Sequence record: MG383452
Length of the DNA: 64,000 nt
From: Escherichia phage FEC14
Reading direction: 5' to 3' (one strand)
Positions 3,699 to 45,479 of the stretch are shown here, piece after piece; positions within the stretch are counted from its first letter, which is position 1; each line of letters starts with the position of its first letter. The translations under genes and the position numbers were made by a program. The notes beneath the pieces are model-generated. The model was not told where the DNA came from, ran no database searches, and saw nothing but the letters and a program-made list of their open reading frames with translations.

Positions 3699-4016
3699 TC
3701 ACAGCGCCCCAAGATTGCTGATGACGTACAGGCTGCACAAGGGAGTCCCTGATGAACGAGGTTCTATGCTCATTCCCGAGAGGCGGATCAGTTCCAGCAA
3801 ACCGTCGGTGGTCTGATACGCACGAGTCGAACCGTTTGGACGATATAGCTCCAACTCGGTTCGCCCTTCCTTTAATGCGTTACGGATGCGAGTGAACACA
3901 CTGTGGGCTTGATATTTTTGACGTAGAATATCTAAACGGGTGATGAGATTTCGACTGCGGCTGCGACGTCCCGTTGACGAAACAACTAATTTCATTTCTG
4001 GTGTTTTACAAGCCAT
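3699..4016 (-). CDS. hypothetical protein (Arg-rich)
   Basis: 105-aa ORF, ATG with GAGGA RBS. Confidence 0.5.
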   Translation of the reverse strand: MACKTPEMKLVVSSTGRRSRSRNLITRLDILRQKYQAHSVFTRIRNALKEGRTELELYRPNGSTRAYQTTDGLLELIRLSGMSIEPRSSGTPLCSLYVISNLGAL

Positions 4017-4084
4017 GTTATAGTCCTCTATTTGTAGGGGTCGGGTATGATTTTAACATACCCGTTCAAATGGTTTAGAACAAA

Positions 4085-6526: not shown

Positions 6527-7849
6527 TTAGAACAGAGATTTGATCAGACCTTTGCGGAAATACGGGTTGCTGTCTTGAGCAATACCGTCAGCAGTCACGT
6601 AAACCTGCGGGTCTTGGTTAGCCGGAATCTGTACGAACGGGTTAGCACAGATGCCGTAACGGGTTTTGAACGCCATACGCGGAGCGAAGGTGGTTTCACC
6701 CTGGGTGCGGTACATTTCCAGCGGCACATACGGTGCGAAGAAGATACCGGCATCCAGCGCAGTTGCGCCTTTGTATGCCAGGGTGATATATTCTGCTACA
6801 GCATACGGGTCAACATAGACGCGCATGCCGTTGGACAGAACACCAGCGAAGGTCTGGCCAGTCGGGTCAACAGCCAGTTTAGTGTTTTCCTGCAGAACCG
6901 GAGCATAGTCCAGCATGCCAGACATCGCCAGAGCGGATGCCACGTTCGGAGAACACAGAACACGGTTGCCTTTACCACGACGGGTGTCAACACCGATACC
7001 GTTCGCTTCAACTTCCAGCATGAAAGTCAGGAACTTCCATTTTTCCAGCGCCCAACGACCGGAGATGTCCTGCGCGATATCAACAACACCGTTGGTGCCG
7101 AATTTTTTGAAGCGAACAGCACTGAAGTTCATGGTACGGATGAATTCACGGTTCATTTCCGCCTGAATTTCAGTTACCATCACGTCAGACAGGATATTAT
7201 CCACGTCTTCGCCGTGAATTGCCATCATGTCCTGACGCAGTTCATGGCTGTAATCAGCGTACAGGCCGCGAGACTTGGCAGTAACAGTCGCTTTCTGAAC
7301 AGTGATACCAACACGCGCCCAAGGGTTGGTGGTAGTACCCAGCAGTTCAGCATCACTTGACGGCATACCTTTACCGATAGTGGTCACGCCAGAGCCGGAA
7401 CCTTCGATCTCAGCCTGACTAAAGCCAGACGGGTCGCCAGCCTGTACAGTACCATCACCGGAATAGCCGGAATCGGCTTCCTGCATGAACAGTTCTTTAC
7501 GAGACTGTGCGGTGTTGGAACTGTCACCAACGCCCTGGCGAGCGCGCAGTGCAAAGATCTGACCGTCAGGACCAGACAGCGGCTGAACACCGAAGAAGTC
7601 CATCGCGATGTTGATCGGCGCCAGACGTTTTGCCATGTCGATCAGAACTGGCTGCCATTTACCGACAGTGCTGTTCACAGAACCAGGTGCGTCAGATTCG
7701 CCCAGGTTTTTTGCGTTCCATTCAGCCTGGTTCTGCATCAGACGGATGGTTACGTTTTCGGCAGACAGAGGTTGAATAGCTTCAGATTCTTTTTGGAGAA
7801 CTGGCAGCCACTGTTTGCGCATTTCTTCGGTTACAAGTTTCTTAGTCAT
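6527..7849 (-). CDS. major capsid protein (T4 gp23-like)
   Basis: 440-aa ORF immediately downstream of the scaffold/protease/portal block, in T4 gene order; GGAACGAG RBS; followed by a strong terminator. Confidence 0.7.
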   Translation of the reverse strand: MTKKLVTEEMRKQWLPVLQKESEAIQPLSAENVTIRLMQNQAEWNAKNLGESDAPGSVNSTVGKWQPVLIDMAKRLAPINIAMDFFGVQPLSGPDGQIFALRARQGVGDSSNTAQSRKELFMQEADSGYSGDGTVQAGDPSGFSQAEIEGSGSGVTTIGKGMPSSDAELLGTTTNPWARVGITVQKATVTAKSRGLYADYSHELRQDMMAIHGEDVDNILSDVMVTEIQAEMNREFIRTMNFSAVRFKKFGTNGVVDIAQDISGRWALEKWKFLTFMLEVEANGIGVDTRRGKGNRVLCSPNVASALAMSGMLDYAPVLQENTKLAVDPTGQTFAGVLSNGMRVYVDPYAVAEYITLAYKGATALDAGIFFAPYVPLEMYRTQGETTFAPRMAFKTRYGICANPFVQIPANQDPQVYVTADGIAQDSNPYFRKGLIKSLF

Positions 7850-44339: not shown

Positions 44340-45006
44340 GGATTATGTCGGGCCTTGCAGGATGGAATAGAGATCCTGTTTTGATGTCCAGGGGAGTCTA
44401 GTATTCAAAGTGAACATATGATAGCTTTGAAGAAACACAAACTAAAGATTGGGGTTTGAATCCCCCGCCCGACGACAAACAATGGGTGTGAAACGAAAGC
44501 AAGTAAGCACGAAGTACGCGAACGACAAGTTCTCTCGAGCGACGTCTAATAGCCGAACGGAATCTGAACCCGACGAAAGTAACGCCCACCAAATTCAGAG
44601 TGTAGAGGCTACAGTAGTGCGCACCTCACGGAAAGCTACACCGGACACTCTGATACAAATCTATCACTGCGTGGATTAGCTGAGGAAGGATGGCCGATGT
44701 CCTCAAGCGTGGCCCAGCACGTGGTGGTAGACCAAACACAGTAAGCGTTGCAGCCAGCTGTGTATAAAATGGGGTGACTCCACATCGAAAACGATGCCCC
44801 AACTTCCAGAAATGGTCGGGCGCGAAGCCTGTAAAGTTCCAGGAGATCGAACCAGAAGGCACTGGTGCCAGTTAACCAATCGGCGCTGATAAGCGCGGGG
44901 AGTTGGGCTACGGCAGATCAAATGCACAATCGGGTGTGAAGCCCGTCCTAATTTCGCGGGAGCCATAGGGGTTGGCCAGTAGCTGACTGCTCTCCCGCTC
45001 CAAATT

Positions 45007-45095
45007 GGAAGGTTGCCCGAGAGGTTTAAGGGACTCGACTGCTAATCGAGTGGGGCTTTTAGCCCCCGAAGGTTCGAATCCTTCACCTTCCGCCA
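45007..45095 (+). tRNA. tRNA-Ser (anticodon GCT), long variable arm
   Basis: Acceptor ggaaggt/accttcc; anticodon stem ctcga/tcgag with loop ctGCTaa; 17-nt variable arm tggggcttttagccccc; T-arm gaagg-ttcgaat-ccttc; CCA encoded. Confidence 0.8.
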
Positions 45096-45098
45096 AAT

Positions 45099-45184
45099 TG
45101 CTTCATAGCTCGAGTGGTAGAGCGCAGGAAAGTTTCGAGAGAACAAGGTGCCTGAGGTCACTGGTTCGAATCCAGTTGAAGCAA
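45099..45184 (+). ncRNA. tRNA-like element with non-canonical anticodon region
   Basis: Acceptor tgcttca/tgaagca (7/7 pairs), canonical D-arm and T-arm actgg-ttcgaat-ccagt, but the 35 nt between them do not fold into a standard anticodon arm by hand. Confidence 0.3.
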
Positions 45185-45479
45185 TCAGAATAATGAGTGT
45201 GACTTCCTGAAGATGAAGAAGGTGTGCATGCCGACTTCATAACAATCTGGGGTTAAGGAAGTTAAGAAAGTCGCAGGATATGCAAGTGAAATGCAAATAG
45301 CTTTCAACGTCCTGACGATTTCGGGTTCGATTCCCGACGCACTCTCCCAAACGCCTAATACTAGAAATTGCTGTGAGTAGTCTTTCCATCCCCACGATGG
45401 TTTAACCATAGCCCGATCAGGAAGATCGGGCTTCTTTTTGTCTATAATAAATAGATCTGGCTTGTAAAGGAGGTCTATT

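Follow-up and report, generated by a model that had tools for sequence, protein, structure and literature searches.

A tRNA-like gene of Escherichia phage FEC14 that appears to carry a portable hairpin in place of its anticodon arm

Anatomy of the element

Escherichia phage FEC14 carries, at positions 45099-45184 (+ strand) of the 64,000-nucleotide (nt) stretch analyzed here (sequence record MG383452; hereafter the window), an 86-nt element that resembles a transfer RNA (tRNA) gene in all parts except its anticodon arm. A first-pass annotation, made from the letters alone, had placed it directly after tRNA-Ser, given it a fully paired acceptor stem and standard D- and T-arms, denied it an anticodon stem-loop of 5 base pairs (bp) and 7 nt, and offered three explanations: an insertion in the anticodon loop of a tRNA, a tRNA pseudogene in decay, or a regulatory RNA derived from a tRNA. 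The anatomical part of this description is borne out letter for letter, including the position, with a 3-nt spacer, AAT, between the CCA of tRNA-Ser and the element. Its parts are listed below; the fold referred to is that of minimum free energy (MFE), and ECML-4 is a related phage discussed in the next section.

45099-45105 (+), 5' strand of the acceptor stem, TGCTTCA, 7/7 pairs with 45177-45183; same as in the tRNA-Ile(GAU) of ECML-4
45108-45123 (+), D-arm: stem GCTC, 8-nt loop GAGTGGTA with G18 and G19, then GAGC (Rfam tRNA alignment)
45112 (+), extra first D-loop nucleotide, G or C, the sole polymorphic site of the element in 12 Kuttervirus copies
45125-45154 (+), 30-nt module in place of the anticodon stem-loop (MFE fold, 12-allele alignment, uniqueness in the window)
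45125-45128 with 45151-45154 (+), outer stem of the module (MFE fold)
45129-45133 (+), 5' internal loop of the module, AAAGT
45134-45136 with 45141-45143 (+), inner stem of the module, TTC/GAA (MFE fold)
45137-45140 (+), GNRA loop of the module, GAGA
45144-45150 (+), 3' internal loop of the module, CAAGGTG
45155-45159 (+), variable loop, AGGTC, same as in the tRNA-Ile(GAU) of ECML-4
45160-45176 (+), T-arm: ACTGG, TTCGAAT, CCAGT (Rfam alignment)
45177-45187 (+), 3' strand of the acceptor stem, TGAAGCA, the discriminator A (45184), then TCA

The Rfam tRNA family RF00005 aligns to the element end to end (model positions 1-71) with 48.7 bits (E 7.5e-9, gathering score 29), a match seen only under permissive E-value filters; the run at gathering thresholds with fast filters listed tRNA-Met, tRNA-Asn, and tRNA-Ser alone in the window and missed the element. 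ARAGORN, which the first-pass annotation had proposed as a check, gave no support: it called the same three tRNAs and nothing, either tRNA or transfer-messenger RNA (tmRNA), at the element, and on the copies in related phages it reports 'tRNA-???' with a 2-nt anticodon. The body has what a tRNA should have: it forms a cloverleaf whose acceptor stem is 7 bp long, its D-arm contains G18 and G19, and its T-arm contains TTCRA. What it lacks is a 5-bp stem with a 7-nt loop bearing U33, an anticodon, and a purine at 37; the alignment places 22 nt where the model has 9, and the terminal loop is a 4-nt GNRA loop. Having no anticodon loop, the element cannot decode. Nor does it look like a tmRNA, since its 3:70 pair is C-G rather than G3:U70 and it holds no open reading frame (ORF); the two ORFs that cross it, 45005-45193 (+) and 45103-45240 (-), overlap tRNA genes and have no support.

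The MFE fold of the whole element is a cloverleaf in which the arm in question is closed by CAGG/CCUG and contains a UUC[GAGA]GAA hairpin. The CAGG/CCTG stem around 22 nt that had been suggested earlier is therefore present, and its interior is not featureless. Over the known copies the module conforms to the 30-nt consensus CAGG-ARAGY-UUC[GNRA]GAA-CAAGGUG-YCUG, i.e., a 4-bp stem, an asymmetric 5x7 purine-rich internal loop, a 3-bp UUC/GAA helix, and a GNRA cap. The 30-nt core is found a single time in the 64-kb window and in none of 100 shuffles, and all 23 pairs of cloverleaf and hairpin show standard pairing in each of the nine distinct alleles compared (9/9).

Origin and spread of the exchanged arm

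In the Kuttervirus phages ECML-4 and PS5 the same slot, between the CCA-AAT of the previous tRNA and the same downstream RNA, is occupied by a canonical tRNA-Ile(GAU), of which the N4-like phage Jgk1 provides a further phage example. The genes of ECML-4 and of the window read:

ECML-4: TGCTTCA TA GCTC AGTAGGTA GAGC G TTCCC-CTGATAA-GGGAG AGGTC ACTGG-TTCGAAT-CCAGT TGAAGCA A CCA
Window: TGCTTCA TA GCTC GAGTGGTA GAGC G CAGGA-AAGTTTCGAGAGAACAAGGT-GCCTG AGGTC ACTGG-TTCGAAT-CCAGT TGAAGCA A TCA

Locus, flanks, acceptor stem, D-stem, G26, variable loop, T-arm, and discriminator are shared; the differences lie in the D-loop, which has another sequence and one nucleotide more, and in the anticodon stem-loop, where 17 nt, anticodon included, have given way to 30 nt with junctions at 26/27 and 43/44. 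The shared body and the position of these junctions mark this as a replacement of the whole arm rather than an insertion into a loop. By this comparison, the element is a derived tRNA-Ile(GAU) gene whose anticodon stem-loop was exactly replaced by a portable 30-nt hairpin. Of the explanations offered earlier, the tRNA with an enlarged anticodon loop was thus right about tRNA origin, the parent being tRNA-Ile(GAU), and wrong about the insertion.

A working tRNA would require either that the extra 13 nt are spliced out of the transcript as an intron or that the long arm still decodes. The perfect tRNA body, the A73 discriminator, the CCA encoded by most relatives, and annotators' calls of tRNA-Leu(aag) and tRNA-Pro speak for it. 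Against these stand the 4-nt GNRA terminal loop and the 2-nt anticodon reported by ARAGORN, as well as the absence of the ancestral anticodon stem TTCCC/GGGAG, which an insertion would have left in place. Moreover, whichever segment is excised from the arm closed by the CAGGA/GCCTG stem, position 33 is A or C and no 7-nt anticodon-type loop results, neither a group I intron nor any other intron family is found in Rfam up to E=10, and 13 nt is far below the size of a group I intron. We know of no bacterial enzyme that would splice bulge-helix-bulge introns. Taken together, we regard decoding by this RNA as scarcely conceivable.

The tRNA region of the window matches 283 phage records, the best being Kuttervirus phages (Ackermannviridae, Vi01/CBA120-like) of Salmonella and E. 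coli with 98-99% identity. At least 138 phage records contain the form with the exchanged arm, referred to below as the chimera, over at least 80% of its length. About a dozen Kuttervirus records have the canonical form, among them ECML-4, PS5, Mooltan, Matapan, GEC_vB_GOT, GEC_vB_N6, SeF3a, AKM_ssTn, phage 241, STML-13-1, and UTK0004, so that in this genus the chimera outnumbers the canonical gene roughly ten to one. An ordinary tRNA (ECML-4, PS5) or nothing (PLL1) at this position in related phages had been named beforehand as an outcome that would speak against the element; both occur, in a minority of relatives, and they reveal its source rather than refute it.

Outside Kuttervirus, the chimera is found in Agtrevirus (SP-9-14 and our loci L109 and L111), in the N4-like genera Kaypoctavirus (VLCpiP4b and the 72-kb contig L104/L150) and Gamaleyavirus (pSb-1, L155, L158), and in the 111-kb coliphage EP_H11. 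The T-stem is unchanged across all type-A copies and the canonical tRNA-Ile genes, and the T-loop is TTCGAAT or TTCAAAT only. At the 3' end, A-TCA is found in the window and several Kuttervirus copies, and A-CCA in CBA120, SP-9-14, L104, and VLCpiP4b. Gamaleyavirus offers a view of how the arm travels. At the locus of the pSb-1 chimera, Bp4 and IME11 carry a canonical tRNA-Ile(AAU), with which pSb-1 shares the flanks, the acceptor stem GCCCACT/AGTGGGT, and the T-arm; the D-arm, the module, and the variable loop of pSb-1 follow the Kuttervirus type. This mosaic indicates that recombination carried the segment from one tRNA-Ile gene to another, the genes having TAGCT and GGTCACTGGTTCRAATCCAGT in common.

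Annotation of this gene is inconsistent. It is labeled 'tRNA-OTHER / tRNA-Undet' in GG32 and ST-W77, 'tRNA-Leu(aag)' in SilasIsHot, and 'tRNA-Pro' in the Agtrevirus SP-9-14, and is unannotated in S8 and CBA120. In pSb-1, the start of gp97, a 'hypothetical protein' (L007 308-643), lies inside the tRNA-like gene (294-378), where Bp4 has a tRNA alone annotated; the 5' part of this coding sequence is probably a mis-annotation. One and the same gene thus goes by Undet, Leu, Pro, and 'hypothetical protein', a problem that should be flagged.

A second scaffold for the same hairpin

The hairpin is not confined to tRNA bodies. A 34-nt block, GCGCAGGAGAGCTTCGGAAGAACAAGGTGCCTGT, in coliphage HK620 is 100% identical (34/34) to the Agtrevirus allele and lies between the late promoter/qut site and the late terminator tQ, a region in which P22-like phages often keep tRNA genes (PMC8022706). 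Here the module is one arm of a four-way junction, GUGGUG-AAU-GCGCA[GGCUGA]UGCGC-[module]-GCCGG[AGAUCAGCG]CCGGC-CACCAC, which carries the identical hairpin in a place equivalent to the anticodon arm; its other three helices, unlike those of the element, are not tRNA arms. The loops of arms 1 and 3 are complementary, GCUG(A) with (U)CAGC, without covariation, and their pairing could form a tRNA-like elbow. The outer helix differs compensatorily between lineages (GGTGTGGTG/CACCACA versus GATTGGATG/CATCCAATC). No Rfam family for the junction was found.

Junctions bearing the module also occur in HK633, swi2, SopranoGao, ZCKP8, ZC2, and dozens of IMG/VR and metagenome contigs, and the full module-bearing junction is present in 97 of 5426 complete E. 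coli genomes, unannotated and in apparently prophage-like places; a search of the GTDB representative genomes gave no match to the module. Other phages (Taipeivirus UPM2146 and Magnus, Klebsiella phage 6991, N4-like IME11, and Erwinia phiEt88) have unrelated inserts of 40-178 nt in the arm that holds the module in HK620.

A conserved RNA with a tmRNA-type tag frame after AUAAAU, encoding the tags ANEEMYLAVA*, ANDNTFLAVA*, and ANDDVVLMAA*, precedes the junction by about 150-300 nt in HK620 and in four of the five further junction phages examined (UPM2146, Magnus, 6991, and IME11). In Erwinia phiEt88 the alignment to this RNA is poor, and neither a tag frame nor an Rfam match was seen. The phage tmRNA-like RNAs score 20-41.5 bits with the Rfam model tmRNA_permuted, below its threshold (47), and are missed by ARAGORN. 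The 41.5-bit match is in VLCpiP4b, about 100 nt downstream of the chimera and past two more tRNA-like genes; there, the junction has shrunk to a small hairpin. The module sits either in a tRNA body beside tmRNA-like RNAs or inside such an RNA.

Such tmRNA-like RNAs were located in HK620 (L138, ~268-666), in L143, L144, L145, and L146 (~1150-1650), and in L140 (457-679). They are encoded by diverse phages of enterobacteria, including P22-like, Taipeivirus, and N4-like phages and Klebsiella siphophages, and most copies have the 3' junction and its hypervariable arm.

Three module alleles are common to both scaffolds. In an alignment of 12 distinct alleles from the two, 25 of the 30 module positions are invariant. 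The tetraloop is GAGA in the window, GGAA in Agtrevirus and HK620, GAAA in the N4-like L104, VLCpiP4b, and L010, and GGGA in L026, all four types conforming to GNRA. Variation is thus found at tetraloop positions 2 and 3, and otherwise at the last stem pair (G-C or G-U), at the second internal-loop residue (A, G, or U opposite a U), and at the Y before UUC. Searches that fixed only half of the module interior or none of it, and one in which the anticodon stem was free as well, turned up no tRNA-Ile body with another version of the module, and a covariance model of the module detected nothing diverged in 626 kb of unrelated viral sequence.

An identical 34-nt block in unrelated genomic contexts, together with signs of small mobile insertions nearby in some relatives, might suggest that the 30 nt act as DNA, as a protein-binding or recombination site with an incidental RNA context. 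We consider this very unlikely. In both contexts the block exactly forms a helical arm within a folded RNA and lies on the transcribed strand, at sites that phages use for tRNA genes (PMC8022706); the changes between alleles obey the logic of RNA (GNRA, G-U), and no repeat or partner site was found in the window.

The fold of the module invites comparison with known RNAs, and several candidate identities were rejected. The window allele contains CGAGAG, as in the sarcin-ricin loop, while the other alleles have GGAA, GAAA, or GGGA; mimicry of domain IV of the signal recognition particle (SRP) RNA finds no Rfam SRP match up to E=10, and that of boxB no match. Likenesses to RNase P CR-I (AGGAAAGU) and to the 16S stretch 1499-1506 (AACAAGGU) are no better than chance for 8-mers and are not kept from allele to allele. 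Motifs of the CsrB-like CAGGA(N)G and Hfq (ARN)n types were noted as well.

Constraint on the element and its possible function

The variability of the locus was assessed in an alignment from tRNA-Ser to the next gene, comprising 12 Kuttervirus copies (11 haplotypes). The neighbors of the element in this alignment are:

45007-45095 (+), tRNA-Ser(GCT), upstream neighbor (ARAGORN and Rfam)
45195-45349 (+), 'el2', an RNA of ~155 nt, 10 nt downstream of the element (read from the sequence)
45410-45442 (+), strong intrinsic terminator at the end of the tRNA-Ser/element/el2 unit (9-bp stem with 6 G-C pairs, then a T-run)

With one variable site in 86 (45112), the element has the fewest of the locus; tRNA-Ser has 4/89, el2 13/156, the terminator 2/33, and the spacers 10-32%. 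A decaying pseudogene, the second of the options raised earlier, is contradicted by this, by the intactness of 100% of the pairs, and by the retention of the gene in three phage families. How real decay looks in the same cluster can be seen at 44957-45003 (+), GCGGGAG...CTCCCGC-T-CCA, the remnant of a tRNA-like gene of 84 nt whose intact form is found in CBA120 (L004 220-303), where ARAGORN calls it tRNA-Ile(gat). About 37 nt are gone from this remnant, from the 3' side of the anticodon through the T-arm, and both acceptor strands and CCA are kept, quite unlike the element. In S8 and ST-W77 the same region holds a tRNA-Tyr plus extra sequence.

The main rival reading is a neutral or selfish hairpin cassette that spreads by gene conversion into tolerant RNA arms and landed here in a dispensable tRNA-Ile; the resulting gene would bring the phage nothing and would be too young to have decayed. 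The chimera did move between tRNA-Ile backbones by recombination, three alleles occur on both scaffolds, and the arm that holds the hairpin in the tmRNA-like RNA is hypervariable and apparently dispensable; some relatives have a plain tRNA-Ile or no gene, and the Kuttervirus copies show an insertion in the D-loop and TCA for CCA. Set against this, the element is less variable than the bona fide tRNA-Ser, its substitutions cluster at structurally tolerant sites, and the 37-nt deletion close by demonstrates a different kind of decay. The swap is exact at helix junctions on two unrelated scaffolds, as selection for a folded product would give, and the chimera is about ten times as frequent as the canonical gene in Kuttervirus records. 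On balance, we judge the neutral cassette unlikely.

We instead consider it probable that the element is a carrier derived from tRNA-Ile that no longer decodes and that displays a portable hairpin; selection would act on this hairpin, which most likely binds a host factor found throughout Enterobacterales. The third option raised earlier, a tRNA-derived regulatory RNA, fits best of the three when read as a tRNA-derived non-coding RNA with a putative function.

Several observations weigh against a selected carrier. Folding z-scores are weak, at -1.05 for the element as a whole and about 0 when the arm is taken by itself, and neither hairpin stem shows covariation; because these stems never vary, it is thermodynamics and the GNRA pattern that argue for the inner hairpin. 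The five acceptor-stem pairs that have changed on both sides and might pass for covariation were discarded as such, since they reflect a swap of tRNA-Ile backbones rather than stepwise compensation. The changes in the module are transitions, bar one A-to-T in allele L014, and its invariance is partly a matter of ascertainment, as two of the searches demanded TTCG..AGAACAAGGTG. Because the family is young and recombination spreads it, near-identity across families may in part reflect recent transfer rather than long-term selection. Some relatives (PLL1 and ChubbyThor) have neither form. Finally, two tRNA features are relaxed in Kuttervirus, namely the D-loop with its extra polymorphic nucleotide and the CCA end, which is TCA in many copies; this fits an RNA that is no longer selected for charging and is still selected as a folded object.

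In the mechanism that we propose, the element would be transcribed together with tRNA-Ser and el2, its 5' end would be cut by RNase P, and its 3' end would be produced by trimming and CCA repair. We infer these steps from the spacing, which is that of the other tRNAs of the cluster. The RNA would then fold into the L-shape of a tRNA, the tRNA body serving as a stable, correctly processed carrier that displays the hairpin at the tip of the long arm, where it would most likely bind or decoy an enterobacterial host factor that deals with tRNA-shaped RNAs. Candidates include a tRNA-targeting defense nuclease and a protein or ribonucleoprotein with a part in translation or RNA processing. A host factor is proposed because the carriers, which comprise Ackermannviridae, Schitoviridae, EP_H11, lambdoid and P22-like phages, and Klebsiella siphophages, share no proteome.

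More tentatively, the single hairpin on tRNA-shaped carriers of unrelated phages could work purely as RNA, decoying or inhibiting a host factor that handles tRNA shapes; we regard this as possible, although rather doubtful. The carriers would be a tRNA-Ile body in lytic phages and the junction in a tmRNA-like RNA in temperate ones, and a defense nuclease, translation, or ribosome rescue could be the target. If correct, this would constitute a new class of phage RNA effector.

The downstream neighbor el2 combines an acceptor-like stem of 7 bp, GAGTGTG/CGCACTC, with the T-arm TCGGG-TTCGATT-CCCGA and a TCCCA tail, and it is kept in Klebsiella Taipeivirus directly after tRNA-Gln (L008 626-784) with compensating acceptor changes. 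Its layout is loosely tmRNA-like (AAGGTGTGCATGCC versus AAGGTGCATGCC in ssrA), and its alignment to E. coli ssrA is weak; we found no G3:U70, clear tag frame, or ARAGORN or Rfam call for el2, and no match to it in E. coli genomes by BLAST.

Comparable RNAs

The design of the element is that of the engineered tRNA scaffold of Ponchon and Dardel (PMC3401473, PMC3753655), in which the acceptor, D-, and T-arms are kept, so that the cell processes and stabilizes the RNA, and the anticodon stem-loop is swapped for a cargo. In the element, likewise, the tRNA body is intact and the anticodon arm alone has been exchanged. It differs in being natural and phage-encoded and in having a cargo that also occurs on a second natural scaffold, a non-tRNA junction. 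If the hairpin does bind a host factor, the element would be a natural counterpart of the laboratory scaffold and a compact, RNA-only means of manipulating the host.

The tRNA-Other of Bacillus cereus (PMC3399842) is tRNA-derived, carries the label 'tRNA-Other', and has a non-translational role rather than a decoding one; in contrast to the element, it is chromosomal, its anticodon arm is of normal size, and its sequence is unrelated. YrlA, a Y RNA-like molecule in which a tRNA-like D/T module is set on a long irregular helix and binds Rsr, is partly similar; its topology differs in that its ends lie in the long helix. An identity with YrlA (RF02553) was rejected, the match reaching 33.9 bits against a gathering score of 69 and being driven by the T- and D-arm parts. 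To our knowledge, E. coli K-12 has no Rsr. The tRNA cluster of phage T4 encodes small stable RNAs, species 1 and 2 (rnaC/rnaD), which are not tRNAs and have acceptor-like ends. These and the element both lie among phage tRNA genes; they have no sequence relationship, and the element is a full tRNA body with one arm exchanged.

Both tRNA-derived non-decoding RNAs and small stable RNAs in phage tRNA clusters are therefore known kinds; what is new is a natural tRNA scaffold with a cargo shared with a phage tmRNA-like RNA. Literature searches that included literal sequences among the queries found no description of the element, and Rfam contains no family beyond tRNA that matches the module-bearing element. 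Phage tRNA clusters are usually read as supplements for codon usage or against nucleases, and odd members are filed as 'tRNA-OTHER' and ignored. For experiments on the arm, nature provides pairs that are close to isogenic, with ECML-4 and PS5 having the plain tRNA and most other Kuttervirus phages the chimera.

Other unusual tRNA-like genes were noticed along the way. Bodies of tRNAs with expanded anticodon arms and different cargo occur in the viral contigs L170, L190, L197, L202, and L221. The arm in L170 (~3964-4017, minus strand) reads CCCC-UACCCGGG-ACCC[GCAA]GGGU-GCAU-GGGG, its inner hairpin being GNRA-capped, and an expanded-arm family in contigs of 53-100 kb has TCACA/TGTGA around about 24 nt. 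The placing of cargo on tRNA scaffolds may be more general. The N4-like tRNA clusters with non-canonical members were those of the L104 locus (minus strand), in the interval between tRNA-Ser (7748-7837) and tRNA-Gln (7598-7674), L146 (2104-2179), and L140 (~360-440). These clusters contain a mini-helix, GAGAGT...ACTCTC-A-CCA, with a 50-nt interior; a tRNA for which ARAGORN gives 'tRNA-???' with a 2-nt anticodon and which we read as having a 4-bp stem and an 8-nt loop; and a tRNA-like gene with an aberrant D-arm.

In ChubbyThor (L166, ~400-600) and PLL1 (L167, ~415-600), an insert of ~170-190 nt is found where the element would sit, and in PLL1 the tRNA-Ser is missing at that place as well. The insert has a T-arm, GTGGG-TTCAACT-CCCAC, and is flanked by the repeat ATCATCGC; SP-9-14 has an uninterrupted TTGCGATGATCGCAAATCA. 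It looks like a small mobile or tRNA-like RNA insertion.

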